64,000 bases of DNA from Escherichia phage alia. The DNA lies in the sequence record NC_052655.1; one strand, 5' to 3'. Position 1 is the stretch's first letter; each line of letters opens with the position of its first letter. Both the position numbers and the translations under genes were made by a program. This document shows positions 30,251-59,758 of this stretch, in pieces. A model generated the notes under the pieces. It ran no database searches. It saw only the letters and a program-made list of their open reading frames with translations, and had not been told where the DNA came from.

Positions 30251-30517
30251 TTACTCCGCAATCTGAGCCATGAATTCACGTAGTTCAGAAAAACCTCCTA
30301 CGTGGGTTAGCTGTTCACCATCTTCCACAAAAATCTGAGGGAATGTGCGTGGTAGAACACCTGTTTTCTCTAAAACCAGATTCTGAAGCTGATCTAAAGA
30401 ATAGTCTTCATCTAAGGTAAGATATTTAAAATCCTGTTCACGCTGTTCCAGTAGAATCTTAGCGTTAGTGCAGAAAGGACAATTTGGTTTACCGTAGATA
30501 ATAAAATTCATTTTCAC
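30251..30517 (-). CDS. glutaredoxin/NrdH-like redoxin
   Basis: Active-site CPFC at residues 13-16 in an 88-aa thioredoxin-fold-sized protein; located beside the nucleotide-metabolism genes. Confidence 0.8.
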   Translation of the reverse strand: MKMNFIIYGKPNCPFCTNAKILLEQREQDFKYLTLDEDYSLDQLQNLVLEKTGVLPRTFPQIFVEDGEQLTHVGGFSELREFMAQIAE

Positions 30518-31344
30518 TCCTTGTTTAAAAGTATAGTTAAAGTTCTTACAATACCGCTATCAACACTTCGCGGATTTAAAGTAGGATCTGTTTTTAAATA
30601 AGATGTTGCTGGTCTGACTGCTTTAGAATTATAGGTTGAAGCAGATACAGGATTAACTGTAACAGATAAATCTATAACAAGAAATATCTTACGTGCAAAA
30701 TCATACCAAGAAATATAATCTGCACCTGCATAGTGTACAATTTTACTATTTACACCATCTTTTACAAGTTTAAAAATTGTTTCTGCCAGATCAGGTGCAT
30801 AAGTAGGACATGATAAATGATCACATACTACATTAAATTCTTTTTGACCACCGTTGTAGCGTTCCAACATAGTTTTCAAAAAGTTATGTCCAAATTCACT
30901 ATAAACAGAAGCTGTTCTGATAATAAGTGCTGTAGGACAAACTGTTTGTACTAAAGTTTCACCTAATTGTTTACTGTAACCGTAGGTGTTCAAGGGGTTT
31001 GTTTCACTATCTTCTGTGCCAGCAACATGCCCATCAAAAACATAGTCTGTTGAAATATGTACAAACTGTATCAGTAAATCATTACATGCTTTGGCAATGT
31101 TTGTTGCACCGTATGCATTAACATTTATACAGGTGTTAACATCTTCTTCAGCTTTATCTACTGCTGTGTAAGCCGCACAATTCACAACAACATCAGGCAC
31201 ATGCTGTACAAGACTATTCATAACATCTTTAAAGTTGGTAATGTCTACATCACTTGCTTCAATCAAAATAACATCTTCGGGCGCAACTTTTGCCAAAGAC
31301 TGTCCTAATTGACCTTTTGAACCAAAGATTAAAAATTTTGTCAA
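30514..31344 (-). CDS. rmlD: dTDP-4-dehydrorhamnose reductase
   Basis: N-terminal FLIFGSKGQLGQ Rossmann motif, length 276 aa, last gene of the rmlB-A-C-D order. Confidence 0.8.
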   Translation of the reverse strand: MTKFLIFGSKGQLGQSLAKVAPEDVILIEASDVDITNFKDVMNSLVQHVPDVVVNCAAYTAVDKAEEDVNTCINVNAYGATNIAKACNDLLIQFVHISTDYVFDGHVAGTEDSETNPLNTYGYSKQLGETLVQTVCPTALIIRTASVYSEFGHNFLKTMLERYNGGQKEFNVVCDHLSCPTYAPDLAETIFKLVKDGVNSKIVHYAGADYISWYDFARKIFLVIDLSVTVNPVSASTYNSKAVRPATSYLKTDPTLNPRSVDSGIVRTLTILLNKE

Positions 31345-31895
31345 AATATGATCTCCTTTAGTGTTTTGGCTTGCTGATCTTTTTGTGACAAGATAGGTTT
31401 AAAATTAATATCATTAAAGATTAAATCAAAACCCCAATCTATATTGATATCTGGATCATTCCACGCAAGACTACACTCTGAAGTCGGATCGTAATATTCT
31501 GTACATTTATATTCAAAATCAGCAATGTCGCTAATCACAACAAAGCCATGAGCGAAACCAGGAGGAATCCAAAATTGTGTTTTATTCTTTTCAGATAAGA
31601 GAACACCTACCCATTCTCCAAATGTTGGACTACCAACCCTAATATCTACAGCAACATCATAAACTTCACCACGAACACAACGTACTAACTTCCCTTGTGG
31701 GTTTTTCTTTTGAAAATGAAGCCCACGTAGAACTCCTCGAATAGAACGTGAATGGTTATCTTGGACAAAGTTTTGTTTACCTATGTATTGATCATATAAA
31801 GCCTGATTAAAACTTTCTAAGAAAAAACCACGTTCATCTCCGTAAACGTCAGGTTGAATGATCAACAAATCTTCGATTTTTGTTGCTTGAATCAT
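31341..31895 (-). CDS. rmlC: dTDP-4-dehydrorhamnose 3,5-epimerase
   Basis: 184-aa cupin; ERGFFLESF and LRGLHFQ motifs characteristic of RmlC. Confidence 0.85.
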   Translation of the reverse strand: MIQATKIEDLLIIQPDVYGDERGFFLESFNQALYDQYIGKQNFVQDNHSRSIRGVLRGLHFQKKNPQGKLVRCVRGEVYDVAVDIRVGSPTFGEWVGVLLSEKNKTQFWIPPGFAHGFVVISDIADFEYKCTEYYDPTSECSLAWNDPDINIDWGFDLIFNDINFKPILSQKDQQAKTLKEIIF

Positions 31896-31906
31896 TTAAT
31901 TCCCCC

Positions 31907-32776
31907 TTATTTTAATTTAAGTAAATACTTACCGTAGTCTGTTTTACTTAAAACCTCTCCAGAACTTTTTACAGAGTCTAAAGTAATCCATTCATTTTTA
32001 AAAGCAATCTCTTCTAGGCATGCAACCTTCATACCTTGTTGCTTTTCTATTGCATGAACAAATTGAGATGCTTCCATAAGACTTTCATGTGTTCCTGTAT
32101 CCAGCCAAGTGAAACCTCTTCCTAGTTTACAGACACGTAAAGCCTTTTCTTTCCAGTACATCTCATTTATATCTGTAATCTCTAACTCCCCTCTAGCAGA
32201 AGGTTTAACGCTCTTAGCTTTCTGTATAACAGAATTATCGTAAAAGTACAAGCCTGTAATTGCATAGTTGCTTTTTGGTGCTTTTGGTTTTTCCTCAATA
32301 CTCACCACTGTACCTTCAGAATCAAACTCAACAACACCAAATCTTTCAGGATCATTTACGTGATACCCAAAAATATTAGCTCCACCATTCTTTTCAATAT
32401 GTTCTTTAGCAGAATCTAAAATGCTACCAAAACTCTGACCAAAGAATAAATTATCACCTAGCACAAGTGCTACAGAATCTTCACCAATAAAGTTCTCACC
32501 AATAATAAAGGCTTCTGCTAAACCTTTTGGACTGTTCTGTACTGCATACTGTAGGGAAACACCAAAAGAAGAACCATCACCTAAAAGATTTACAAAATTA
32601 ATTTGATCTTCTGGTGTTGTAATTATTAGTATTTCCCTAATTCCAGAAAGCATTAGGACAGAGAGTGGATAATAAATCATAGGCTTATCGTAAATTGGTA
32701 ATAGTTGTTTACTAACCCCTTTAGTAACTGGGTAAAGTCTTGTTCCGCTACCACCTGCTAAGATAATACCTTTCAT
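31907..32776 (-). CDS. rmlA: glucose-1-phosphate thymidylyltransferase
   Basis: N-terminal [18 protein letters not shown] (G-x-G-T-R-L nucleotidyltransferase signature), 289 aa. Confidence 0.9.
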
Positions 32777-32784
32777 ACTCCTCC

Positions 32785-33774
32785 TTAAACTTTATTTTCC
32801 CACCACTCTTTGTTATCTACATACCAATCAATGGTTGAATAAAGTTTTTCTTCAAATGTGCCTTTAGCTTTCCACCCTAATTCCTTTTCGATCTTATAAG
32901 GATTCACTTCATATCTCAGATCATGCCCAGGTCTATCTGTAACCATCTCAATTAGGCTACAAGCATCTGTTTCAGATGGATACACCGCATCCATATAATC
33001 ACAAATCATATAGATTACATCAATATTAGTTCTAGGGTTTCTGCTCCCAATATTATATGTTTCTCCAGATTTGCCTTTAGTTACTACTAGGTGTAATGCT
33101 TCTGCGTGATCGTCAACGTATAACCAGTCTCTTACTTGAAGACCATTGCCATAAACAGGGATTGGTTTATTCATCAAGATATTTGTTATCGTTTTAGGTA
33201 TTAGTTTTTCTGGATGATGATATGCTCCAAAATTATTTGAACAATTTGTTAGAACTGTCGGAATACCATAAGTACGATGCCACGCTCTTACCAAATGATC
33301 GCTTGCTGCCTTAGATGCAGCATATGGACTACTTGGCTTATAAGGATTCTGTTCTGTAAACGGATAATCCCCCTCTTCCATATCACCATATACTTCATCT
33401 GTTGAAATATGATGGAACATTTTAAGATTTGATTTATCTCCCATTAAACGAACAGCTTCTAGGAGATTAAATGTCCCAACAATATTTGAATTTATAAAAA
33501 CACTCGGTGATGCTATTGAATTATCTACGTGACTTTCTGCTGCAAGATGCATTATATAATCTGGATTAACATCTGCCACAATCTTAGCAGTTAACTGCGC
33601 ATTTGTCAAGTCAACACGACAAAACTTTACATTGGGTGTTTCTGATAAATTTCTAGGGTCTGAAGCGTAACCCCATTTATCTATAACGTAAATATCATTT
33701 TTAGTATTTTTAGCCAGGAAACGAACTACCGCACTTCCAATAAAGCCTAAACCACCTGTTACTAAGTATTTCAT
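32785..33774 (-). CDS. rmlB: dTDP-glucose 4,6-dehydratase
   Basis: N-terminal [12 protein letters not shown] Rossmann motif; SDR Tyr/Lys catalytic pair (YAASKAA); 329 aa. Confidence 0.85.
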
Positions 33775-34629: not shown

Positions 34630-34840
34630 CTTTTTCTCCTTTGATAATTTCAAACTTGGCTACACCATTAACTATAATATGACCGCAAGACATAACTCCT
34701 AGCCAATGATCACCATTCTTTTTTAAACGTTTGCCGTAAACATCACAGAAACCATTCTGTAATTCGGAAGCCTCATAAGAGGCTCCCTTTTCGAAAACGT
34801 CTTTGAAGTCAGAAATTAATCCAACACAAAGTAGTTTCAT
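34622..34840 (-). CDS. hypothetical protein (72 aa)
   Basis: ORF track; start abuts the nrdB stop. Confidence 0.45.
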   Translation of the reverse strand: MKLLCVGLISDFKDVFEKGASYEASELQNGFCDVYGKRLKKNGDHWLGVMSCGHIIVNGVAKFEIIKGEKDD

Positions 34841-35925
34841 TAGAAGTCTAACTCCTCGTCATCACTTACATCTTTATTTGCTGAATTCAGTTTGTAAGCT
34901 GTAATTTGGATCTCTTGTGCTGCTGCTTGAATTTGGTCTGGATTTAACCAAACATCCATCCAAGGCAGTGGACTTTTCTTCGGTGCACGGAATTTGTGTT
35001 TCATTTTCAGTCTGCGATAGATAGGCGCAGCATTGAAGTAAACCCAAAGTTTGAACAACTCTGCGTTACCACCAACGATAATCCTTCCTTCACTAAACAG
35101 ATAGTCACACCAATCTTCCTCTTGTCCAACTACCGTGTCAAGAATTTCTGTCAGAACGTCGATATTATCTTCGTATACTTTTCTCCAGACAGGATCTTTC
35201 AGCAGTGCATCAATAATAGCATAATCCATTTTAACGTGCAATAGTTCATCCAACATAATTTTTTGAATGAGTTTAGCTGCACCTACAAACAGTTGCTGCT
35301 CTGCTAAGGCAAATGTTGCAGCAAAAGATGATATGAATTGAATGCCTTCCAGACCGATAAGTGCAATCATTCCTTTCAGAATCAGTAGACGAAGGTTATC
35401 ATCCTTCTCAATCAGACCTAGAGCATATTTATGTCCTGCCTCTGCCAGATCACTCATTATCTCTTCAACTATACCCATCCTCTGGAAGATTCTTTCGTTC
35501 TCCATAATCTGATCGATAACTTCATTTGGATTAGGGATACACTGACGAATAATTTCAGAATATGTCAAAGCGTGTAAAACTTCCATTTCTGATTGCTTCA
35601 TCATCATTGCACATGCTTCGTTGTTGCTTAAAAATGGTGCAAACAAAGTGATGATTGATTTAGCAAGTGAATCATTTTCCCATTGGAAGGATAGGTTTTT
35701 GATCATAACATCATAGTTGCTTTTAGAACAAGCTACGAAATCTTTTCGTGTCTGATCTAAGTTTACTTCGTTTTCATCCCAATCTTGCTGTTTTTGTAGT
35801 TTGTACAGACGATGCATTTCTGGGTATGTTACATTAATAGAATCAAAAATACCTAACTGTTCTCCCAAAAATACAGGATAGAAACCTTCTTTGTAAGTGT
35901 CGTTGTATAAATTAATCGCTGCCAT
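34840..35925 (-). CDS. nrdB: ribonucleotide reductase class Ia small (beta) subunit
   Basis: 361 aa; di-iron ligand pattern (EVLHALTYSE...; ExxH motifs) and acidic C-terminal tail (DDEELDF) typical of NrdB; directly downstream of nrdA. Confidence 0.85.
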   Translation of the reverse strand: MAAINLYNDTYKEGFYPVFLGEQLGIFDSINVTYPEMHRLYKLQKQQDWDENEVNLDQTRKDFVACSKSNYDVMIKNLSFQWENDSLAKSIITLFAPFLSNNEACAMMMKQSEMEVLHALTYSEIIRQCIPNPNEVIDQIMENERIFQRMGIVEEIMSDLAEAGHKYALGLIEKDDNLRLLILKGMIALIGLEGIQFISSFAATFALAEQQLFVGAAKLIQKIMLDELLHVKMDYAIIDALLKDPVWRKVYEDNIDVLTEILDTVVGQEEDWCDYLFSEGRIIVGGNAELFKLWVYFNAAPIYRRLKMKHKFRAPKKSPLPWMDVWLNPDQIQAAAQEIQITAYKLNSANKDVSDDEELDF

Positions 35926-36247
35926 TTAAATCCTCCACAATATCACACATTGCTTTTATTGTATCAATGTGTTTTCTCTCCATACCATTCTCTATGTAAG
36001 CCTTCTCTAATGCGTTCCATACACTCTTTGTGAGTAGTACAGTAACCTCTCCATCATATCTTGCCCTGGTTAAAGCATACCAGGTAGCTTCTGGATCATT
36101 GGAAGCCCATATTTCAACACTGGAAAATTGAAAACCTGCAATATGATGACAACACCAATCGAATGTAAAATCTTTACTATCTACCAGTGTATAATTGCCC
36201 CAACGCCTTTGTGGTGTTGCCCCAGGTAATACAACTAATGTAGGCAT
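35912..36247 (-). CDS. hypothetical protein (111 aa)
   Basis: ORF track 35912..36289; start moved to the internal ATG preceded by AAGGAGG and located after the terminator-like hairpin GGGGGCTTTGTCCCCC. Confidence 0.5.
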   Translation of the reverse strand: MPTLVVLPGATPQRRWGNYTLVDSKDFTFDWCCHHIAGFQFSSVEIWASNDPEATWYALTRARYDGEVTVLLTKSVWNALEKAYIENGMERKHIDTIKAMCDIVEDLNGSD

Positions 36248-36288
36248 ATTCCTCCTTAAGAAATGGGGGACAAAGCCCCCTAGCTTCA

Positions 36289-38550
36289 TTACATCTTACA
36301 AGCCTCACAACCGGATTCTTCATCCTCTTGAGCGAGTGAGGTTGCTGATTTTGTTCGACTATTTAGATAGTACAAAGATTTACCACCAAGTTTTGCAAAC
36401 TGAAGGATATATTGCATTTCTGATTTAATGGATAAACGACCACCTTCCATCTTAGAATAGTCAATCCACTTGTCACATGATGCACCTTGATCTAAGAATT
36501 TAGTCAACAGTCCATATGCTTCAGCCATATCTTTATCTGGCGTATCCCAAGCCGATTGGTAAATATCTTTTAGTTTATCGTAATCTGGCACAATAAACAA
36601 GACATTACCTTTTTGGCTTTGTTTATAAACTATAGTATCACGTACAGGATACACAGAGTTAGTCGTATTACTTACAAGACTACTGGACTCATTCGGAGCA
36701 ATAGCTGCTAATACACTATTTCGGATACCACCTTGTGCAATTATATCTTGTCGTAAACCTTCCCAATCCATTTTAAGTTTAAAATTGCCAATATCGTCTA
36801 CAGCTTTAGCGTAGGTATCAATAGGCAACCATCCTTCAGGCCATTTGGTTTTATGCATCCATTCTGCATTACCTTTCTCTTTTGCCAAACGAAGAGAAGC
36901 TCTTGCTAACCAGTAATAATGTCTTTCTGCTAATTCGTGAATTAGTTTTTTGCCGTAAGGATCTGAATAAGTAACAAAATTACTTGCCAGATAATGTGCC
37001 AGGTTTGTAATACCTACACCGATAGACCTACGTGCTTTAGCAGTGATTTCGTTATGTTTGAACGGATACTGCATTGTTTCAATAACATTATCAATAGTTA
37101 GAACGGTATAATATGCAACATCTTCATATTCTTCTGGTGTAACACGACCAGCTACAATAGAAGACAGGAAGCATAATGCCAATTCTTGATCTTCTGTATT
37201 CTCACCTGTGAAAAGATCAGTCATACTGTGAAATGCTTTCGTAGGTAAGAAAATTTCTTGGCACAAGTTTGACTGATAAATAACATCCTTAAACGGAGTA
37301 TGCTTATTAGCATTATCCGCAAAGAACATATAAATACGTCCTGTCTCTGCTCTTTGTGTAATAATTTCTGCCAGAAGATCTCGTGCTTTTACAAACTTCT
37401 TCTTAATTCGTTTGCGACTAACTTTTTCATATACTTCTTCAAACTCTTCCTCGCTTTTATAAAGCGCCTCATAGAGTTCTGGTGCTTCGTCATAACTGAC
37501 TAGCATCCAATCTTTGCCTTTTGCTGCACGGCGCAGGAAAGCATTGTTTACTACAATAGAGTAATCAAGTTTATCTACTCGTTTTTCACTAACAGTAGTT
37601 GGGTTTTTCAAACGTACCAGATCTTCAAAATCAGGTTCTAATATTGTAAACGTTACTGTTGCACTTCCACCACGACTTGCTTGTTTTGATGCTCCAACAC
37701 TTGTTTCCATCCATTTCAGATATGGTAAAAGACCACCGTGAACGATACGGTTGTTCTTAACACCTTGTCCTGTAGCACGGGTTTGTAGGTTAACACCAAT
37801 ACCTGCATTATTCAAGGTATATTCATGAGCAAGATAGTTAGCAATTGCTAAAGATTCTGCTGTATCATCTGCTCTAAACAGACAACAAGAAGCACTACCT
37901 TTAATCTTAGTACGCAAAGTTGTTAAATAAGGTGATGGTAAATTAATCTTAAGATCACTTACGTAGGTATATAGACGTTTAATGTCTTCTACTCTGCGAT
38001 CTTTTGGTTGGATTTCCATTACCTTCATTGCTACACCAATGAATAAAAACTGTGGTGATTCAAAAACCACATCATTGATCGCATCTTTCACAAGATACTT
38101 ATCAACCATCTGACGCAGTACGGAATAACCATAAGTTAGGTTTTTATCATGATTGATAATTTTACCAATCTCAATAATTTCTTCTTCTGTATAATCCATT
38201 TTCCCCCAATAGCCTTTACTTACAGACATATTGTAGAAATCCAGGAGGGAGGGGATATTGTGATATCCCCCATGAGCCTGTTTATAGATCATACCAAGAA
38301 GTAACCGACCTGCCATATCACTATATGCCTGATCTTTCTTATCAATACATGCTGCTATCATAGCTTTATGTAAATCACGAGTAGGCACACCGTCGTAACA
38401 ACGTTTAACAGCTTCGAGTTCTATTTCAGACCAATTTAATTTACCAGCAGCAAACTCTGACCATTTACGAAGTTTTTCTGGATTAAATTCTTCTTTCTTG
38501 CCGTTTGTTTTTGTTACATAACGGATAGATTTGCTTAGATACTGAGTCAC
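36289..38550 (-). CDS. nrdA: ribonucleotide reductase class Ia large (alpha) subunit
   Basis: 753 aa; N-terminal ATP-cone-like region (VTKTNGKKEEFNPEKL), active-site Cys/Asn/Glu context (NLCQEIFLP) and C-terminal redox cysteine pair (SGCEACKM). Confidence 0.9.
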   Translation of the reverse strand: MTQYLSKSIRYVTKTNGKKEEFNPEKLRKWSEFAAGKLNWSEIELEAVKRCYDGVPTRDLHKAMIAACIDKKDQAYSDMAGRLLLGMIYKQAHGGYHNIPSLLDFYNMSVSKGYWGKMDYTEEEIIEIGKIINHDKNLTYGYSVLRQMVDKYLVKDAINDVVFESPQFLFIGVAMKVMEIQPKDRRVEDIKRLYTYVSDLKINLPSPYLTTLRTKIKGSASCCLFRADDTAESLAIANYLAHEYTLNNAGIGVNLQTRATGQGVKNNRIVHGGLLPYLKWMETSVGASKQASRGGSATVTFTILEPDFEDLVRLKNPTTVSEKRVDKLDYSIVVNNAFLRRAAKGKDWMLVSYDEAPELYEALYKSEEEFEEVYEKVSRKRIKKKFVKARDLLAEIITQRAETGRIYMFFADNANKHTPFKDVIYQSNLCQEIFLPTKAFHSMTDLFTGENTEDQELALCFLSSIVAGRVTPEEYEDVAYYTVLTIDNVIETMQYPFKHNEITAKARRSIGVGITNLAHYLASNFVTYSDPYGKKLIHELAERHYYWLARASLRLAKEKGNAEWMHKTKWPEGWLPIDTYAKAVDDIGNFKLKMDWEGLRQDIIAQGGIRNSVLAAIAPNESSSLVSNTTNSVYPVRDTIVYKQSQKGNVLFIVPDYDKLKDIYQSAWDTPDKDMAEAYGLLTKFLDQGASCDKWIDYSKMEGGRLSIKSEMQYILQFAKLGGKSLYYLNSRTKSATSLAQEDEESGCEACKM

Positions 38551-39330: not shown

Positions 39331-40302
39331 TTACCATTTTGTATGGTTAGTCAAAAGTTGACGATGTTGAATCCAACCACAGAAGTTTCCACTCCACAAA
39401 CGATGTTTACGATCCATATGTGTAATACCTTCTTCCCAAGAAGTAGGGAACGGAGGAATATTAATACCACCTTTCTGTTGTTTTAATCCTGACAAATCCA
39501 TTTCTTTCATTGGCGTTGCCTGGTGTTCAAACGGAGATGCATGTACCTTTTGTCCAGACAGCAAACGAGAATAGATATCCAATGCTTTATCTTTAGTATC
39601 ATTCAATTTACGATAACTTACCTGAGCGCAACAAGAAGCTGAAATAGCTTTTGCTTCCTCTTCTGTCAACATTTTCTCGTTGGAGAAGGTTTCACCTAAG
39701 AAATAACGGATCATACCAGTTTCTGGATCTCGATCACGATTAACGTAAGGTGTATGCCATTCCCCTGGGAAAAGAAGATATGGTTCAGAAGATTCATACA
39801 GTTTTTTAATTTCTTTAGCAAGAGCCTCAATAGTAGGATCTGCATCAGCATCTACGCGCAACCACAAGAAGTTTTCTAGCTCTGTAGCGGTGACTACAGT
39901 CTTCATACGCTGGAATGGTTCTAGTAGGCGGTTTGCAACCTGTTTATGATAACCAGCAAGGGCAAACTCTTCTGCAAAACGTGCAGCACTTAGTGCAGCC
40001 AAGTCCCACCATTCTTTTGCAGTGTAACCTGCATCAATCAGGGCATCGTGATCTGTGCCTTTATCTTGCATACCTGGTTGGTTAGCACCAAAACGATAAG
40101 GACGTGCTGGAGATTGCCGTACCATTTCAATTAGAGTTTTAACAGGGATAGCTCGACTTGATGCAGCATTACGAGAAAACAAACGATGCGTCATCAATTC
40201 AGAGTGAATGATTCGGGGATATTCAAGTTCAAAGGTAACAATATCCTTACCTTCAGATGTTTGAGAGTGTGCAATAATTTTTGCTGAAATAGAGTTTGTC
40301 AT
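39331..40302 (-). CDS. ThyX-like flavin-dependent thymidylate synthase family protein
   Basis: THRLFSRNAASSR segment fits the ThyX signature (R/T)HR-x7-S-x-R; 323 aa, longer than typical ThyX; lies next to tdk and nrdAB. Confidence 0.6.
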   Translation of the reverse strand: MTNSISAKIIAHSQTSEGKDIVTFELEYPRIIHSELMTHRLFSRNAASSRAIPVKTLIEMVRQSPARPYRFGANQPGMQDKGTDHDALIDAGYTAKEWWDLAALSAARFAEEFALAGYHKQVANRLLEPFQRMKTVVTATELENFLWLRVDADADPTIEALAKEIKKLYESSEPYLLFPGEWHTPYVNRDRDPETGMIRYFLGETFSNEKMLTEEEAKAISASCCAQVSYRKLNDTKDKALDIYSRLLSGQKVHASPFEHQATPMKEMDLSGLKQQKGGINIPPFPTSWEEGITHMDRKHRLWSGNFCGWIQHRQLLTNHTKW

Positions 40303-40311
40303 TATTTCTCC

Positions 40312-40902
40312 TTAAGGTAGTAAAATACTTTCAATTTCTTCCCACTGATTATCTAAACCAGTGATAATTACATTAGGAAGTTTCTTTAACTCTTCCAAGT
40401 ATGGATCTTCGTAAATAGTGTTGAAATATATTTTCAACGTTTCATCTGGAAATAGGACAAGATTTTCAGCCCTATCGTCAATAGTTACGTCGCAAGGTAA
40501 TAAGTATTTTTCTTTTGTTGCGAAAAAGCCATTACCAGATGTTCTACTAAAGTCCACTTTATCTAAAGATCGTGTTACGTGTCTATATTTAGAACTAAGG
40601 TGTCCACCCTTAGTGTGGCTTGCTATAGATATATTAGCTCCATTTGCAATTATACGATGAACAACATCTGTACTATTAGGTACTACTCCCATAGTATCAT
40701 ATAGATGTTGGTTATCCCAAAAAGAGTAAGGATCTACACCAAATTGCTTTTTAAAATCAGGAAAATATTTCGTAATATCATAATGCACAGTCTTTTGTGC
40801 CTTATCAAACTTGATATTAGATCTACTTACCGCATTTAACCAACTCAACCATTCTATATCGGCAGGAGCTATTACTAAATCCCAATCACATACTAGACGC
40901 AT
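40312..40902 (-). CDS. putative 5'(3')-deoxyribonucleotidase-like HAD-family protein
   Basis: ORF track 40312..41016; start moved to ATG 40902 to limit overlap with tdk. N-terminal LVCDWDLVIAPAD resembles the DxD nucleophile motif of HAD-type deoxynucleotidases. Weak call. Confidence 0.4.
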   Translation of the reverse strand: MRLVCDWDLVIAPADIEWLSWLNAVSRSNIKFDKAQKTVHYDITKYFPDFKKQFGVDPYSFWDNQHLYDTMGVVPNSTDVVHRIIANGANISIASHTKGGHLSSKYRHVTRSLDKVDFSRTSGNGFFATKEKYLLPCDVTIDDRAENLVLFPDETLKIYFNTIYEDPYLEELKKLPNVIITGLDNQWEEIESILLP

Positions 40903-41449
40903 TATTTCTCCTGTTATAACATTTTCTACACATTGTTTCGTAAATGTCTTCTCCTCCAATAACAATCTGTTCTTTAGAGTCGATAAGTCTAGCATTGAAA
41001 ATAGCTTTTCTTCCACATTTACAAATGCTTTTCAATTCTGTAATTGAATCTGCTATGGCTAATAACCGTTCAGAACCTTCAAACAATTCTGTAGCAAAAT
41101 CTGTTTTAAGCCCATAACAGAATACAGGAATATCGTAATTATCTACCACATCTCCAAGAATGTCAACCATATCTTTAGTTAGGAATTGTGATTCGTCCAC
41201 AAATACTGCATCTACTGGATTTTCTTTAAGCTGTGTATAAATTTCCAGCATATCTTCTTTTGTTTTAACTGGTTTTGCTTCCTCTTTAATACCTATCCTA
41301 GAAGCAATAGCACAACCAGATCTGGTATCTAAAGCTGAAGTTAAAAGAAGAACTTTCATATTTCTTTCTTTATAGTTCCAAGCTGTTTGTAGCAGATGTG
41401 TGCTTTTACCACTGTTCATCGGACTATATCGGAAATAAAGTTTAGCCAT
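40886..41449 (-). CDS. tdk: thymidine kinase
   Basis: MAKLYFRYSPMNSGKSTHLLQ (P-loop), VFVDESQFL, and C-terminal zinc-ribbon cysteines (CxCG...C..C) align position by position with bacterial/T4 Tdk. Confidence 0.9.
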   Translation of the reverse strand: MAKLYFRYSPMNSGKSTHLLQTAWNYKERNMKVLLLTSALDTRSGCAIASRIGIKEEAKPVKTKEDMLEIYTQLKENPVDAVFVDESQFLTKDMVDILGDVVDNYDIPVFCYGLKTDFATELFEGSERLLAIADSITELKSICKCGRKAIFNARLIDSKEQIVIGGEDIYETMCRKCYNRRNNASSM

Positions 41450-41494: not shown

Positions 41495-42070
41495 TTATTT
41501 CTCTTCGTCAAGAAGAATTTTTACTATTTGTTTTCTTCGCTTACTTACTGTACTTTCTGGTGAAATTCCGCGCTTCGTTAGCCAATTTTTATCCTTTTTA
41601 GACTGGCATAAAGCTATCGCTTCCTTCTCCGCTTTTGCTTCCCTGAATGTCATATCGTGCTTGTCAGCATAAGCCAGGATAGCGTTACACTGCTTACAAA
41701 CTACACGCAGGTCGTCTTCTGTTACATACAATAGGCGTAAAACAAAACTTGGGATATCTTCATAACAGGTTAATGTACCTGCTGCATTGATATGGTCTAC
41801 TTGAAAGTCTTTCATACCTCCTGTGTGTCCACACAATTCACACTTACAATTCCAAACCTGTTTCGGTTTGCCTGTTTTCTTATCTAAAACTACATTGCCA
41901 TCTTTGTCCAACCTATCGGCTTTAAATCGTACAGATTGGATCTTTTTTATCTTATTCGGGTGTCTCACCCATGCTTTCCTTAAGCAACCCCTTAAATATG
42001 TATAAAAGGCTGCTTGAGTTTTCCAAGGTGTTCCATCTCCCCAAATAACTTTAGGTTCTTTATTTTCCAA
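41495..42070 (-). CDS. HNH endonuclease family protein
   Basis: CKCELCGHTG...QVDHINAAG...CKQCN: the Cys pairs and His-Asn-His spacing of an HNH nuclease. Confidence 0.65.
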   Translation of the reverse strand: MENKEPKVIWGDGTPWKTQAAFYTYLRGCLRKAWVRHPNKIKKIQSVRFKADRLDKDGNVVLDKKTGKPKQVWNCKCELCGHTGGMKDFQVDHINAAGTLTCYEDIPSFVLRLLYVTEDDLRVVCKQCNAILAYADKHDMTFREAKAEKEAIALCQSKKDKNWLTKRGISPESTVSKRRKQIVKILLDEEK

Positions 42071-46261: not shown

Positions 46262-46984
46262 TTAAGCAATGATTGCTGCGATATTAGGTTTAACAAAGGT
46301 AGATGGTTTCATAATTTTACCTTTGTCATCAAAGAATACGTACACCTTTTGAACTTCGTTATATACAGCATGTACCCCAGTATAAGAACCTTCTGCACGA
46401 TCTTTGCTTCGCATCTCGATAGCATCGCACTCTTTTTCAAGAGCTTCAATAATATCCTTAGTTTCCCAAATAGCCAGGAGTTGCTTCTTGGTAGGATACT
46501 TGGACTCATTGCTATTCAACACTTCACGCATAACCTTCTTCTCGTTATAAACAGAACGCACCAAAGTATCTCGTGCCATACGGGTAAGTGTAAGAGACAT
46601 TAAGGCAAATTGCAAGTCATTTTCTACCATTTTATCAAATTCAATGATAACATCGTAAATGTTCTCTGCCAGAACATCTCCTGTCGGCATTTCCAGAGCT
46701 TTATCAACACCTTCTTTACCAAAGAACATAAACGCCAGGTAGGATGCTACCACAAAAATATCTGCTGCTGCATCAAGTAATTCAACGTGATCATTTTCCT
46801 GTGCTGCTGCTTGAAACTCTTTAAGTTCTTCTCGTACAAAAGAAAGTTGAGCTTCAAACATCTCTTGAGTAAATTCTGGAGTTACTCCACCACGCGCCTT
46901 AGCATTCCAAGCAACAATTTGATCGGCAGCTTTGATAAAGAAGCTATTGTCCACTTTTACTTGTTTGAAAAAATTCTCGATCAT
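46262..46984 (-). CDS. MazG-like nucleoside triphosphate pyrophosphohydrolase
   Basis: REELKEF...ELLDAAADIFVVA fits the EExxE-x(n)-ExxD metal-binding pattern of all-alpha MazG/dUTPase-like NTP pyrophosphatases. Confidence 0.5.
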   Translation of the reverse strand: MIENFFKQVKVDNSFFIKAADQIVAWNAKARGGVTPEFTQEMFEAQLSFVREELKEFQAAAQENDHVELLDAAADIFVVASYLAFMFFGKEGVDKALEMPTGDVLAENIYDVIIEFDKMVENDLQFALMSLTLTRMARDTLVRSVYNEKKVMREVLNSNESKYPTKKQLLAIWETKDIIEALEKECDAIEMRSKDRAEGSYTGVHAVYNEVQKVYVFFDDKGKIMKPSTFVKPNIAAIIA

Positions 46985-57263: not shown

Positions 57264-57271
57264 TATTCAAG

Positions 57272-57347
57272 GTTCCATAGCTCACTGACGAGAGCGCACA
57301 CCTCATAAGTGTCGAGGGCAGGGATTGTAACCCTGGGGAACCACCAT
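57272..57347 (+). tRNA. tRNA-Met/Ile2 (anticodon CAT)
   Basis: Hand-folded cloverleaf: acceptor GGTTCCA/GGGAACC (one mismatch), anticodon loop CTCATAA, 3' CCA encoded. Confidence 0.55.
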
Positions 57348-57377
57348 TTAAAAGGAGGTGCTATGCATCTCCTATAT

Positions 57378-57463
57378 GCAAGTGTGGTGGAATTGGTGAT
57401 ACACATTGTGCTTAAAACGCAACGCTTAAATGCTTGAGGGTTCGAATCCCTCCACTTGCACCA
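57378..57463 (+). tRNA. tRNA-Leu (anticodon TAA)
   Basis: Acceptor GCAAGTG/CACTTGC, anticodon stem TTGTG/CGCAA with loop CTTAAAA, long variable arm, T-loop GGTTCGAATCC, CCA encoded. Confidence 0.7.
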
Positions 57464-57478
57464 ACACCTAAAAATATC

Positions 57479-57507
57479 TTGACATTTACTTAGTTTTTTG
57501 TTATAGT
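57479..57507 (+). promoter_or_regulatory. sigma70-like promoter inside the tRNA cluster
   Basis: TTGACA 57479-57484, 17-nt spacer, TATAGT. Confidence 0.5.
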
Positions 57508-57518
57508 CGTTATGAAAA

Positions 57519-57600
57519 CGGGGTGTATCTCACCTGACTTCTAATCAGGCGTTAACCGAGTAATTGGAGTATGCAGGTTCGAATCCTGTCACCCCGGCCA
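57519..57600 (+). tRNA. atypical tRNA-like gene (possible anticodon TCT)
   Basis: Perfect acceptor CGGGGTG/CACCCCG and T-arm GCAGG-TTCGAAT-CCTGT with CCA, but only one internal hairpin (CCTGA-CTTCTAA-TCAGG) and no recognisable D-arm; isotype uncertain. Confidence 0.4.
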
Positions 57601-57618
57601 AAAAGTTTTAAAAACTAC

Positions 57619-57647
57619 TTGACAAGCAAGATAGTTTTATGTTAGAT
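57619..57647 (+). promoter_or_regulatory. sigma70-like promoter inside the tRNA cluster
   Basis: TTGACA 57619-57624, 17-nt spacer, TTAGAT. Confidence 0.45.
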
Positions 57648-57663
57648 TTAAAGTATGATAACG

Positions 57664-57753
57664 GGAAGGTAGGGCGCAGCGGTGCGCAACCAGGTTTGAA
57701 CCCTGGCCCATTGTAGCGATACGGTGATGGTTCGACTCCATTATCTTCCTCCA
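57664..57753 (+). tRNA. tRNA-Ser (anticodon TGA)
   Basis: Acceptor GGAAGGT/ATCTTCC (G-U at pair 6), anticodon stem CCAGG/CCTGG with loop TTTGAAC, long variable arm, T-loop GGTTCGACTCC, CCA encoded. Confidence 0.65.
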
Positions 57754-57798
57754 AATTCAATTAGTAACAGATTCAGGTTGTTTTGAATAATTAAAAAT

Positions 57799-57884
57799 GG
57801 TAGATTGGTGAAATGGTAGCCACAACAGTTTGCTAAACTGTCGTCGGAAACGGCGTGTAGGTTCAAGTCCTACATCTACCGCCA
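57799..57884 (+). tRNA. tRNA-Ser (anticodon GCT)
   Basis: Acceptor GGTAGAT/ATCTACC, anticodon stem ACAGT/ACTGT with loop TTGCTAA, long variable arm, T-loop GGTTCAAGTCC, CCA encoded. Confidence 0.7.
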
Positions 57885-58054
57885 AGTTATCTTTAATGTA
57901 GCTTGTTGCTCTTAGTTGCTTGGTGTAACTTTTTGGAAGAATGGCTGCAACCATCTTACTTTAATAGAGTAAACTTTCGGCAGATGGCCCCCACCATCTT
58001 ACCGATACCTCATAGTCAGTGGTGCGAACACTGGCTATTTTAAAGATAATTTAT

Positions 58055-58129
58055 ACATCGTTAGCCAAGCGGTAAGGCACTTGACTTTTAATCAAGGGAG
58101 CGAAGGTTCGAATCCTTCACGATGTACCA
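58055..58129 (+). tRNA. tRNA-Lys (anticodon TTT)
   Basis: Acceptor ACATCGT/ACGATGT, anticodon stem CTTGA/TCAAG with loop CTTTTAA, T-loop GGTTCGAATCC, CCA encoded. Confidence 0.65.
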
Positions 58130-58134
58130 AACAC

Positions 58135-58221
58135 GTAGGTATCGCATAGCGGCAATTGCTGGAGACTGTAAATCTCCTGCCCTTCGGGGCTTCGTTGGTT
58201 CGAGTCCAACTACCTGCACCA
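58135..58221 (+). tRNA. tRNA-Tyr (anticodon GTA)
   Basis: Acceptor GTAGGTA/TACCTGC (one G-U), anticodon stem GGAGA/TCTCC with loop CTGTAAA, long variable arm, T-loop GGTTCGAGTCC, CCA encoded. Confidence 0.65.
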
Positions 58222-58228
58222 AATTAAA

Positions 58229-58313
58229 GATGGATTGGCCTAGTGGTTGGGCGACGGACTGTTAATCCGTGAACGAAAGTTCTAGCAAGGTTCAAATCCT
58301 TGATCCATCGCCA
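58229..58313 (+). tRNA. tRNA-Asn (anticodon GTT) with unusually long variable region
   Basis: Acceptor GATGGAT/ATCCATC, anticodon stem ACGGA/TCCGT with loop CTGTTAA, extra hairpin GAAC-GAAA-GTTC in the variable region, T-loop GGTTCAAATCC, CCA encoded. Confidence 0.55.
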
Positions 58314-58392
58314 AATAGTGCTTGTAGAGTTAATAGAAACCTCTAGAATTTTCTAGAATTGTAGGTATCAAACCCTACCAAGCAAATATTTT

Positions 58393-58467
58393 GCTCCTAT
58401 CGTATAACGGCTATTACGGTTGCCTTGTAAGCAACTTATCAGGGTTCGAGTCCTTGTGGGAGCACCA
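58393..58467 (+). tRNA. tRNA-Thr (anticodon TGT)
   Basis: Acceptor GCTCCTA/TGGGAGC (one G-U), anticodon stem GTTGC/GCAAC with loop CTTGTAA, T-loop GGTTCGAGTCC, CCA encoded. Confidence 0.7.
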
Positions 58468-58489
58468 ATTTAACTCTAAAGGAGTGTAT

Positions 58490-58813
58490 GTGACAGAAAA
58501 AGAGTTAGAGAAATATTTTAATATCAATGTTTTCGATGGTTTTGATGCTATTGAAGATGTTGAAAGATATTATGAAGTAGAGTTAGATAAGGATAACATT
58601 GTAATTCTTTCTGCCACTTATGATTGTGCATATTATGAAGGCGAATCTCACGTTTATTTCTATGATATGAAAACATCTTTGTTTTATGAAGTACACGCAT
58701 ATCATTGTTCTTGTTATGGCTTAGAAGGTCAGTGGGAACCTGAAGAAATAGGTGATTTGAGCTTTACGGTTGCATATCTAAACAGACGTGGCGCATCTAC
58801 TATTTTAAAATAA
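58490..58813 (+). CDS. hypothetical Cys-rich protein embedded in the tRNA cluster (107 aa, GTG start)
   Basis: ORF track 58391..58813 overlaps tRNA-Thr; start moved to GTG 58490, 5 nt after AAGGAG. C-terminal YHCSCYG cysteines. Confidence 0.5.
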   Translation: MTEKELEKYFNINVFDGFDAIEDVERYYEVELDKDNIVILSATYDCAYYEGESHVYFYDMKTSLFYEVHAYHCSCYGLEGQWEPEEIGDLSFTVAYLNRRGASTILK

Positions 58814-58827
58814 ATATTAAAAGCCTC

Positions 58828-58856
58828 TTGACAAAGGGGCTAATAATATGTTAGAG
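58828..58856 (+). promoter_or_regulatory. sigma70-like promoter inside the tRNA cluster
   Basis: TTGACA 58828-58833, 17-nt spacer, TTAGAG (TAATAT alternative). Confidence 0.45.
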
Positions 58857-58868
58857 TAATATTGTTAA

Positions 58869-58943
58869 GCGGGTATAGTGTTAATGGTAGCATATGAGGT
58901 TTCCACCCTCCAGGTGCAGGTTCAAGTCCTGTTACTCGCTCCA
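58869..58943 (+). tRNA. tRNA-Gly (anticodon TCC)
   Basis: Acceptor GCGGGTA/TACTCGC (one G-U), anticodon loop TTTCCAC, T-loop GGTTCAAGTCC, CCA encoded. Confidence 0.6.
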
Positions 58944-59042
58944 AGATTATTTAAATGGAATCGCTAGAGAAAATTTCTCTTTTCGCTCATGGTTTTCTCC
59001 TTCAAACTCTAGCGGTTCTTTTTAAGTGATTTTTAGTTTTAT

Positions 59043-59117
59043 TGGAGATTAGCCTAGTGGGAAGGCAACGGCCTTTGAAGTCGTGATGACTAGGTTCGAT
59101 TCCTAGATCTCCAGCCA
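59043..59117 (+). tRNA. tRNA-Gln (anticodon TTG)
   Basis: Acceptor TGGAGAT/ATCTCCA, anticodon stem ACGGC/GTCGT with loop CTTTGAA, T-loop GGTTCGATTCC, CCA encoded. Confidence 0.65.
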
Positions 59118-59124
59118 ATATTTA

Positions 59125-59200
59125 CAGTGCGTAGCGCAGTTGGTAGCGTGGGAGCTTTGGATGCTTCGGGTCGCAGGTTCGAGTCCTGCCGCACTGACCA
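59125..59200 (+). tRNA. tRNA-Pro (anticodon TGG)
   Basis: Acceptor CAGTGCG/CGCACTG, anticodon stem GGAGC/GCTTC with loop TTTGGAT, T-loop GGTTCGAGTCC, CCA encoded. Confidence 0.7.
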
Positions 59201-59205
59201 AATTT

Positions 59206-59280
59206 GCAGAGATAGCTGAGACGGATTAGTGCTACCCTGAAAAGGTAGAAAGGATGGATCGTTACCATCTCTCTGCACCA
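59206..59280 (+). tRNA. tRNA-Phe (anticodon GAA) with non-canonical T-loop
   Basis: Acceptor GCAGAGA/TCTCTGC, anticodon stem CTACC/GGTAG with loop CTGAAAA, T-arm GATGG-ATCGTTA-CCATC (not the usual TTCGAAT), CCA encoded. Confidence 0.55.
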
Positions 59281-59357
59281 AATAACACCATCCAAGGAGT
59301 AGACTTGGTTAACTGTCAATAGCACATTGAGGCTTCTTACAGTGGTGTACTTATTAT

Positions 59358-59442
59358 GGCTAAGTGGTGGAATGGTATACACGATACGCTTAGAACGTAT
59401 TGCCCCAAGGGATTGTGAGTTCGAGTCTCACCTTAGCTACCA
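59358..59442 (+). tRNA. tRNA-Leu (anticodon TAG)
   Basis: Acceptor GGCTAAG/CTTAGCT (G1-U72), anticodon stem ATACG/CGTAT with loop CTTAGAA, long variable arm, T-loop GAGTTCGAGTCTC, CCA encoded. Confidence 0.65.
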
Positions 59443-59457
59443 AATTATTACAGGTTT

Positions 59458-59536
59458 CGCGGGATAGAGGAGTCTGGTCGTCCTCGCCAGTTTCATATGC
59501 TGGAGATCATCGGTTCGAATCCGATTTCCGCCTCCA
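59458..59536 (+). tRNA. tRNA-Met/Ile (anticodon CAT), C1/C72 mismatch
   Basis: Anticodon stem CCAGT/GCTGG with loop TTCATAT, T-arm ATCGG-TTCGAAT-CCGAT, CCA encoded; first acceptor pair is C-C, and D-loop is long. Confidence 0.5.
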
Positions 59537-59613
59537 ATAAATACCTCCATTCTGGTGTAATGATTAAATTACATTGACACTTCAAGGAACTCATAGCCGG
59601 GTAGATTTAAAAG

Positions 59614-59680
59614 AGTATGGTACTCAATATGGCTCCAAACCATAGATCAGGGGGTTCGATTCCTCACCTTGCTGCCAATT
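59614..59680 (+). tRNA. degenerate or D-arm-less tRNA-like element (possible anticodon CCA, Trp)
   Basis: Canonical T-loop GGTTCGATTCC and 3' GCCA, internal hairpin TATGG-CTCCAAA-CCATA, but acceptor pairing is imperfect and no D-arm fits; only about 64 nt before CCA. Confidence 0.3.
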
Positions 59681-59682
59681 AT

Positions 59683-59758
59683 TGTGGTATCGTACAGATG
59701 GTTAGTACACTCGACCGATAATCGAGAAACAACGGTTCGACTCCGTTTACCACGACCA
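59683..59758 (+). tRNA. tRNA-Ile (anticodon GAT)
   Basis: Acceptor TGTGGTA/TACCACG (T1-G72), anticodon stem CTCGA/TCGAG with loop CCGATAA, T-loop GGTTCGACTCC, CCA encoded. Confidence 0.6.

Follow-up and report, generated by a model that had tools for sequence, protein, structure and literature searches.

The question raised by this locus is whether three neighbouring thymidylate-related genes of Escherichia phage alia supply ordinary thymidine nucleotides or feed a non-canonical pyrimidine pathway. An earlier note on the same 64,000-nucleotide stretch of sequence record NC_052655.1 (referred to here as the window) had described a ThyX-like gene, a HAD-type nucleotidase-like gene and a thymidine kinase gene lying beside nrdAB and upstream of the rml operon, and had suggested that the ThyX-like enzyme might be a dUMP-modifying paralogue. 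All three open reading frames were found on the minus strand where they had been placed, followed on the same strand by nrdA, nrdB and then rmlB/A/C/D (Table 1).

Table 1. The thymidylate-related genes, parts of the ThyX-like protein and neighbouring genes; positions are those of the window.
Feature	Position	Strand	Product or extent	Basis
tdk	40886..41449	-	TK1-type thymidine kinase, 187 aa	
HAD gene	40312..40902	-	HAD phosphatase, predicted NT5C type, 196 aa; open frame extends to 41016	
ThyX-like gene	39331..40302	-	ThyX family; long, apparently rearranged, putative flavin-dependent thymidylate synthase, 323 aa	
ThyX core	39784..40245	-	residues 20-173 (= canonical 61-199)	hhalign against canonical ThyX alignment
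Relocated module (predicted)	39523..39651	-	residues 218-260 (= canonical 20-60)	hhalign against canonical ThyX alignment
nrdA	36289..38550	-	class Ia ribonucleotide reductase large subunit; ORF 753 aa	annotation of 99%-identical phages
nrdB	34840..35925	-	class Ia ribonucleotide reductase small subunit; ORF 361 aa	annotation of identical phages
rmlB-rmlA-rmlC-rmlD	30514..33774	-	dTDP-L-rhamnose pathway, dTTP consumer	PaulScherrer annotation bas60_0210-0213; ORFs

At 99% identity, the window matches phi92-like phages (Justusliebigvirus), whose records already label the three genes as a thymidine kinase, a predicted 5'(3')-deoxyribonucleotidase and a thymidylate synthase. The gene cluster is thus already annotated, and its probable role in thymidine-nucleotide supply would be an ordinary one. 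The trio is co-oriented with the class Ia ribonucleotide reductase genes, and nrdA is its same-strand downstream neighbour in the same dNTP-supply block. The G+C content of the window is about 0.37, and promoter and terminator sites predicted in the block were no more numerous than in shuffled sequence. Homologues of ThyA (sought by tblastn with E. coli ThyA), Dut and Tmk were not found within the window, and neither a second thymidylate synthase nor a dihydrofolate reductase (DHFR) is annotated in 135 kb of VEcB, a sister phage.

The identity of the thymidine kinase was unambiguous. The product of tdk matched Pfam PF00265 (TK) with an E value of 1.2e-54, passed the cut-off of the NCBIfam equivalog NF003300 (238.9 bits against 195) and also matched phrog_592, while its translation displayed the P-loop SPMNSGKST and the C-terminal zinc-binding cysteines CxC...CxxC. 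An AGGAG ribosome-binding site lies upstream of the gene.

For the HAD gene, the mechanically called open reading frame spans 40312-41016; translation is taken to start instead from the ATG at 40902. This codon follows an AGGAG ribosome-binding site, is the annotated start in both phi92 and PaulScherrer, and makes the gene overlap the tdk stop by 17 nt. Alignment of 19 homologues was used to check the catalytic aspartates, and all four HAD motifs were kept, with D6 and D8 (DWDLV), S95, K130/K132 and D142-D143 invariant. An AF2 model of the protein (pLDDT 94.6) was compared with the PDB using Foldseek, and the top 16 matches were all NT5C proteins or NT5C-based designs (TM 0.66-0.81), including 3bwv and the human and mouse mdN/cdN (human mdN/cdN TM 0.66-0.70), whereas other HAD families scored clearly lower, at 0.57 or less. 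The match to Pfam NT5C (PF06941) stood at 22.7 bits, just short of the gathering score of 24.8; a PF06941 match is, however, precomputed for 15 of 26 homologues, and the phi92 counterpart, gp079, is annotated as 'predicted 5'(3')-deoxyribonucleotidase'. The deoxyribonucleotidase-like identity proposed earlier thus held, and an NT5C-type 5'(3')-deoxyribonucleotidase is the best match for the protein as predicted from its motifs and modelled structure.

The substrates of HAD proteins are poorly predicted by fold alone, and the protein could be a phosphatase for another substrate (a rhamnose-pathway sugar phosphate, FMN or a flavin precursor, or a ribonucleotide), loosely tied to thymidylate metabolism. 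Besides the sub-threshold Pfam score, such a reading could draw on the absence of any NCBIfam or sequence-level PDB match, on the label 'unknown function' of phrog_420, to which the protein belongs by match, and on the best structural match, 3bwv, being itself merely 'deoxyribonucleotidase-like'. We nevertheless consider it unlikely, given the uniformly NT5C character of the leading structural matches, the PF06941 assignments among homologues and the position of the gene directly upstream of thymidylate synthase in three phage genera, in two of whose members, phAPEC8 (62% identity) and rV5 (33% identity, E 8e-27), the gene pair is kept even though tdk is absent from that place. The persistence of the pair across Stephanstirmvirinae and Vequintavirinae hints at functional coupling between the nucleotidase-like protein and the thymidylate synthase.

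The ThyX-like protein was recognised by Pfam PF02511 (Thy1) at 38 bits, above the gathering score of 24.8, along profile positions 59-186 of 191 only, and by the 'thymidylate synthase' family phrog_85 with an E value of 3.5e-108; its model adopted the ThyX fold with a pLDDT of 94. Its membership of the family was thus borne out. In contrast, it reached 35.3 bits against the NCBIfam thyX equivalog TIGR02170, for which the cut-off is 87.9. Two peculiarities pointed out in the earlier note were also seen. The protein is longer than canonical ThyX (323 aa, as against 209-255 aa, or 216-270 aa for PDB chains), and its translated signature, T37-H38-R39-L-F-S42-x4-S47-S-R49, has Thr in place of the first Arg of the canonical RHRxxSxxxxSxR. 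The other signature positions are kept. Among 60 family members, at least 90% have this Thr, and R39 varies in some.

Residues were mapped from the long ThyX to Thermotoga maritima numbering by hhalign. The T. maritima residues H53, S88, R90, R147 and R174 corresponded to H253, S47, R49, R124 and R148, which are invariant in the 60-member family alignment; PDB entries 4gtf, 3g4a, 3g4c, 5ios, 5iot and 4kat hold enzymes mutated at H53, S88, R90 or R174. S30 and N85, whose roles in canonical ThyX have been described (PMC11940539), are likewise conserved, as S228 and N44. Two other residues, however, are replaced family-wide. R78, which stabilises the FADH- hydroquinone in the canonical enzyme, became the nearly invariant T37, and Y91, the proposed general acid, mutation of which slows flavin oxidation 1000-fold (PMC11940539), became the invariant A50. 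Canonical R165 is also Thr in the long ThyX.

These features are shared by a large family. Members were found in 1033 phage records, most of them without rml genes, and generally go by the annotation thymidylate synthase. Both the T-for-R substitution and the extra length occur throughout, including in N4, ICP1, rV5 and Pakpunavirus-type phages; named members are N4 gp30, ICP1 ORF193 and phi92 gp078. Clustering at 50% left 4972 representatives, with full length kept, and among members of 38-70% identity 20 positions were invariant and a further 28 nearly so. The family is almost wholly phage-borne: a pattern-seeded scan, run once over 185,579 species genomes, returned only 16 loci, mostly on MAG contigs. 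In N4 a dCTP deaminase gene is found 1 kb away. No biochemically characterised member was found in the literature searched. A relationship to PolB-like UMP methylases was considered and dropped, as PolB was no closer a ThyX-fold match than four others, all equally distant, and the locus has no nucleoside-antibiotic context.

Comparison with the canonical family suggested that the parts of the long enzyme stand in a different order. Profile-profile comparison (hhalign) against the canonical ThyX alignment placed the core (P 92%, E 6.6e-7), which carries THRxxSxxxxSSR (T37, H38, R39, S42, S47, R49), R124 and N143/L147/R148, invariant columns of the 60-sequence alignment. The same method matched a second segment (P 89%, E 2.1e-6), made up of helix, helix and HASPFEH and carrying S228 (=S30), H253 (=H53) and H259 (=H59). 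In canonical ThyX the order is strand, helix-helix-HxxPFEH and then core, whereas in the long protein the module appears to follow the core. Consistent with this, a profile of the long family hit T. maritima ThyX in non-collinear pieces (hmmsearch), and when the module was placed before the core a single gap-free alignment to canonical 20-199 was obtained with a score of 94.7 (E 3e-14), compared with 52.3 for the natural order. Three independent computations thus support a rearranged order of parts in the long phage ThyX. The re-ordering test would fit a transposed segment as well as a true circular permutation; in it, the N-terminal strand and the strands preceding the module did not align to canonical residues 1-19. 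About 60 additional C-terminal residues lie beyond the module. The relocation reached significance only in the profile-profile comparison and the re-ordering test; a profile of the C-terminal module alone gave no ThyX match among PDB sequences, and the fragment gave none in Pfam.

The identities of the genes, their order, the folds of their products and the conserved catalytic residues are observations; beyond these, we consider it probable that the trio is a dTMP/dTTP supply module of a virulent, AT-rich (about 37% G+C) phi92-like myovirus. Tdk would salvage thymidine, and deoxyuridine, to dTMP and dUMP respectively, while the 323-aa protein would convert dUMP to dTMP using methylene-tetrahydrofolate and reduced flavin; all its catalytic parts are there, though reordered, with the module that bears the folate/flavin-stacking histidine positioned after the core. 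With a flavin-dependent thymidylate synthase in place, a phage dihydrofolate reductase would be unneeded, and none is annotated. The NT5C-type HAD protein probably dephosphorylates deoxynucleoside monophosphates, and it may be paired with Tdk in a substrate cycle of kinase and nucleotidase by which pyrimidine pools are trimmed or rebalanced, much as happens between cdN/mdN and TK1/TK2 in mammalian cells. High demand for dTTP could arise from the AT-rich genome and from its use by RmlA for dTDP-rhamnose. Several points count against this proposal. A nucleotidase beside a kinase looks futile unless regulated, the long ThyX has R78 and Y91 replaced and falls short of TIGR02170, the literature searched yielded no biochemically tested member of its family, and the HAD protein scores just below the Pfam NT5C threshold with no sequence-level match in the PDB.

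The earlier note raised the alternative of a dUMP-modifying paralogue. Such an enzyme could be a flavin-dependent hydroxymethylase, with a product that, perhaps after glycosylation with rml-derived rhamnose, would replace or decorate the thymine of phage DNA. The replacement of R78 and Y91 and the TIGR02170 shortfall would fit this reading. Genomic context offers some encouragement in the rml operon downstream, a MazG-like NTP pyrophosphohydrolase nearby and, at another place in the genome, four consecutive glycosyltransferase genes adjoining those for helicase and DNA polymerase, and rhamnosylated hydroxymethylated nucleotides have been suggested in print (PMC7552041). However, the unusual residues are family-wide, N4, ICP1 and rV5 included, and are not confined to rml-bearing phages, the ThyX neighbourhoods of N4 and ICP1 being devoid of rml genes. 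Moreover, a published phenotyping study (PMC8594841) called phi92-like phages 'exceptionally susceptible' to restriction-modification systems, their 'putative dTDP glycosylation machinery' notwithstanding, and this restriction sensitivity argues against hypermodified DNA. The thymidine kinase and the dTTP-using RmlA, both encoded here, indicate that ordinary dTMP and dTTP are made and used. A ThyA-type hydroxymethylase is absent from the window and none is annotated in 135 kb of VEcB, and no hydroxymethylase is known to belong to the ThyX family. No nucleoside analysis of phi92-like virion DNA was found in the literature searched. We therefore regard a dUMP-modifying role as quite improbable, and hold to the same low estimate the broader suggestion that the long ThyX makes some other C5-substituted dUMP, or uses another chemistry or reductant, and so feeds the rhamnose and glycosyltransferase genes towards DNA modification; were that true, the modification would be low-level or site-specific and unsensed by the restriction systems tried. 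Thus while the three gene identities proposed in the earlier note stood, its non-canonical pyrimidine pathway is not supported, in view of odd residues that are common to the family and relatives that are sensitive to restriction.

That the protein is a relic of thymidylate synthase, catalytically dead or turned to regulation, is scarcely credible, since the loss of R78 and Y91 and the rearrangement of parts, which might suggest decay, are set against the many invariant and nearly invariant positions kept despite such divergence, the retention of all checked dUMP-, flavin- and folate-contacting residues bar those two, and a very large family maintained at full length with a confidently modelled fold.

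Read as a supply module, the cluster would be an example of a virulent, AT-rich phage obtaining its dTTP through both de novo synthesis and salvage, with an uncertain role for the nucleotidase. The dominant ThyX of phages appears to be a rearranged enzyme with two catalytic residues replaced and a conserved C-terminal extension; neither such an enzyme nor any permuted ThyX was found described in the literature searched. The altered architecture is a modest structural curiosity.

When compared with canonical ThyX (T. maritima TM0449, PBCV-1 A674R and the M. tuberculosis enzyme; PF02511, TIGR02170), the long protein is about 100 residues longer, appears to carry the equivalent of canonical 20-60 after the core and not before it, and adds, at about residues 179-212, an insert rich in beta structure, together with a C-terminal tail conserved as WSGNFxGWIQxRQ, in which R313 is invariant. 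The HAD protein resembles mammalian cdN/mdN and bacterial 3bwv in its HAD fold, its DxDxV motif I, its motifs II-IV and its small helical cap, and its gene adjoins that of a thymidine kinase, so that a cycle like that of cdN/mdN with TK1/TK2 is possible; it differs from them in sharing only 13-17% sequence identity and in scoring below the Pfam threshold.

Comparable nucleotide-metabolism modules occur in other large virulent phages, for example T4 (td/tk/nrdAB) and vB_PcaM_CBB, whose thymidine kinase and thymidylate synthase genes are accompanied by one for a putative 5',3'-deoxyribonucleotidase (PMC5259590). Like alia, such phages combine de novo and salvage dTMP synthesis, ribonucleotide reductase and a nucleotidase within one genome. 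In contrast, they use ThyA and DHFR, whereas alia uses the long ThyX with no DHFR annotated, and the trio is here contiguous and apparently translationally coupled. The pathways to glucosylated hmC in T4 and to 5-hmdU derivatives in SPO1, ViI and M6 likewise have a C5-pyrimidine enzyme in a DNA-metabolism region, within genomes that also carry genes for nucleotide sugars and glycosyltransferases. However, phage pyrimidine hypermodification begins with ThyA-family hydroxymethylases (PMC8989533), and in those pathways the canonical nucleotide is excluded and the DNA is restriction-resistant, whereas here the enzyme is of the ThyX family, thymidine salvage is encoded and related phages are restriction-sensitive.

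The three ORFs of the trio were found on the minus strand at the coordinates claimed in the earlier note, and their identities as tdk, a gene for an NT5C-type HAD phosphatase and a ThyX-like gene were supported, with tdk passing its NCBIfam equivalog. There is a 17-nt overlap between the start of the HAD gene and the end of tdk, 9 nt separate the HAD stop from the start of the ThyX-like gene, and the same strand then carries nrdA, nrdB and, after them, rmlBACD. A 3.6-kb stretch enclosing the trio shared 99.0-99.6% identity with more than 20 phi92-like Escherichia and Salmonella phages (Justusliebigvirus, Stephanstirmvirinae), the near-identical relatives including phi92, PaulScherrer (Bas60), VEcB and UAB_1. 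Annotations in these phages read thymidylate synthase, hypothetical protein and thymidine kinase, the middle gene being a 'predicted 5'(3')-deoxyribonucleotidase' in phi92, and the gene calls were thus already in public databases.

Coordinates within the window of the trio and of other genes discussed in the text
Feature	Position	Strand	Details
tdk	40886-41449	-	Pfam TK, E 1.2e-54; NCBIfam equivalog NF003300, 238.9 bits (cut-off 195)
HAD gene	frame open from 41016; ATG at 40902	-	AGGAG ribosome-binding site; annotated start in relatives
ThyX-like gene	39331-40302	-	323 aa; Pfam Thy1 match
HNH endonuclease gene	41495-42070	-	phrog_1985, E 9.5e-66; directly upstream of tdk
125-aa ORF	35912-36289	-	phrog_17458; between nrdA and nrdB
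rml genes	30514-33774	-	
MazG/PRA-PH-type all-alpha NTP pyrophosphohydrolase gene	46262-46984	-	240 aa; Pfam PF01503, 31.1 bits vs 21.3
Cluster of 15 tRNA genes	57271-59758	+	downstream of the point, near 54 kb, where the coding strand changes

In phAPEC8 (62% identity) and rV5 (33% identity, E 8e-27), neither of which has tdk at this locus, the thymidylate synthase gene is likewise directly preceded by the HAD gene. Thus the conserved unit is HAD-ThyX-(two small genes)-nrdA-nrdB, to which the phi92-like phages have added tdk. A homologue of the HNH gene next to tdk is present in phAPEC8 in the absence of tdk. The nrdA-nrdB gap looks like a homing-endonuclease presence/absence polymorphism, as the 125-aa ORF is also present in PaulScherrer and a 657-nt HNH endonuclease gene occupies this place in phi92 and VEcB. 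Elsewhere, genes for PRPP synthetase and nicotinamide phosphoribosyltransferase are annotated immediately ahead of the tRNA cluster in the sister phage. Records named as Campylobacter phages (MG065682.1 'Campylobacter phage A112b', 134,946 bp, and related entries) showed 60-80% nucleotide identity to the trio region; their ThyX is as near as that of rV5 (about 53% amino acid identity) and their genomes are rV5-like in length, so that they may be Vequintavirus-like and not typical Campylobacter phages.

The HAD protein scored 22.7 bits with Pfam NT5C, slightly below the threshold of 24.8, and gave no NCBIfam match and no sequence-level PDB match. Loss of the catalytic aspartates, which the earlier note had named as a refutation, was not seen; in an alignment of 19 homologues (44-66% identity), D6 and D8 (DWDLV; nucleophile and acid/base), S95 (motif II), K130/K132 (motif III) and D142-D143 (motif IV) were all invariant. 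The best structural matches of an AF2 model (pLDDT 94.6) were NT5C proteins, namely the S. epidermidis deoxyribonucleotidase-like protein 3bwv (TM 0.70/0.81) and the human and mouse mitochondrial and cytosolic 5'(3')-deoxyribonucleotidases (TM about 0.67-0.70), with clearly lower scores for other HAD families.

The ThyX-like protein passed Pfam Thy1 at 38 bits, matching profile positions 59-186 alone, and fell well short of the NCBIfam thyX equivalog (35.3 bits against a cut-off of 87.9). Its long ThyX family gave more than 7500 matches in a 90%-clustered collection (4972 representatives at 50% clustering), most members being 300-345 aa with a full-length match and some double-length at about 630-650 aa. 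Members are encoded in 1033 phage records, among them those of rV5, phAPEC8, PVP-SE1 relatives, ICP1, Pakpunavirus-type Pseudomonas phages, N4, N4-like and phiCbK-like phages. One pattern-seeded scan across 185,579 species genomes yielded no more than 16 loci, most of them MAG contigs, and the family is thus essentially phage-borne. Two sub-types can be told apart after the conserved LR motif (residues 148-158 of the ThyX-like protein, from a 60-sequence family alignment, A1), one with DAQPEI, resembling canonical HAQxEI, and one with DADPTI, found in phi92-like phages, PVP-SE1 and others. Metagenomic double-length members of about 550-650 aa (P0133, P0139, P0143, P0144, P0206 and P0233), with two matched stretches each, resemble two rearranged units fused in tandem and may inform the origin of the rearrangement or the oligomeric state.

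The helix-helix-HxxPFEH segment of canonical ThyX (T. maritima residues 20-60) comes before the strand and RHR motif, whereas in the window protein the equivalent segment (AISASCCAQVSYR...HASPFEHQ) stands past the core, at residues 218-260. Three computations agree on a rearranged segment order, as judged from sequence. When PDB sequences were searched with the family profile (hmmsearch), T. maritima ThyX was split into pieces falling on profile positions 225-267, then 26-55, then 142-186. Profile-profile alignment (hhalign) to canonical ThyX recovered both the core (P 92%, E 6.6e-7) and the relocated module (P 89%, E 2.1e-6). When the module was moved computationally ahead of the core, a single gap-free alignment to canonical residues 20-199 was obtained (score 94.7, E 3e-14), compared with 52.3 for the natural order and 51.0 for a control re-ordering. 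Either a circular permutation or a segment transposition would account for this order. A literature search found no description of a ThyX rearrangement, and the rearranged order in this phage ThyX family deserves mention as a modest structural point.

The T-for-R substitution in the ThyX signature reported by the earlier note is real, the motif reading T37-H38-R39-L-F-S42. Under the rearranged mapping, the family shows no or almost no variation at the equivalents of T. maritima H53, S88, R90, R147, R174, S30, N85 and N169; T. maritima mutants at H53, S88, R90 and R174 have been crystallised, and roles of H53, S30, S88 and N85 in canonical ThyX have been described (PMC11940539). Thr replaces R78, which is directed at N1/C2=O of the reduced flavin, and Ala replaces Y91, a proposed general acid whose mutation makes flavin oxidation 1000-fold slower (PMC11940539). 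Both replacements are family-wide, and thus do not mark the phi92-like phages as special; they would mean a rebuilt active site in the long ThyX family.

These replacements could be read in favour of the earlier suggestion that the enzyme is a dUMP-modifying paralogue feeding a non-canonical pyrimidine pathway, as could the rml operon, the MazG-like pyrophosphohydrolase and, in a sister genome, four consecutive glycosyltransferase genes directly beside helicase and DNA polymerase I genes (NC_052663.1, 101234-104410, beyond the window). Rhamnosylation of hydroxymethylated nucleotides is a published speculation (PMC7552041). The target of rhamnosylation may be virion proteins, the host envelope or DNA, and its discussion in the literature is no more than speculative. 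However, the phage encodes both thymidine kinase and a dTTP-using RmlA, homologues of ThyA-type hydroxymethylase, dUTPase and dTMP kinase were not found within the window, and annotation of 135 kb of VEcB shows no second thymidylate synthase. Long ThyX is moreover common to many phages, with no rml genes in the N4 and ICP1 neighbourhoods inspected, and in N4 a dCTP deaminase lies 1 kb from it, a placement that fits dTMP synthesis. In the BASEL study (PMC8594841), Vequintavirinae and phi92-like phages are also described as 'exceptionally susceptible' to restriction-modification systems, 'despite a putative dTDP glycosylation machinery'. The suggestion was thus not supported, and we consider it very improbable. 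The MazG-type gene is annotated 'nucleotide pyrophosphohydrolase' in VEcB, and its product could be a candidate dUTPase or dCTPase-like enzyme supplying dUMP.

Instead, the trio is most likely a thymidine-nucleotide supply module. The G+C content of the phage is about 37% and that of its host about 51%. Ribonucleotide reductase would provide deoxynucleotides, the predicted ThyX would form dTMP de novo with no need for DHFR, Tdk would salvage thymidine and the predicted NT5C-type nucleotidase would trim or rebalance dNMP pools, with RmlA placing an extra demand on dTTP. The nucleotidase and Tdk may form a substrate cycle, by analogy with the mammalian cdN/mdN-TK1/TK2 substrate cycles. As a cluster, the trio is already known and ordinary, and the large phage vB_PcaM_CBB has also been described as having all three functions (PMC5259590).
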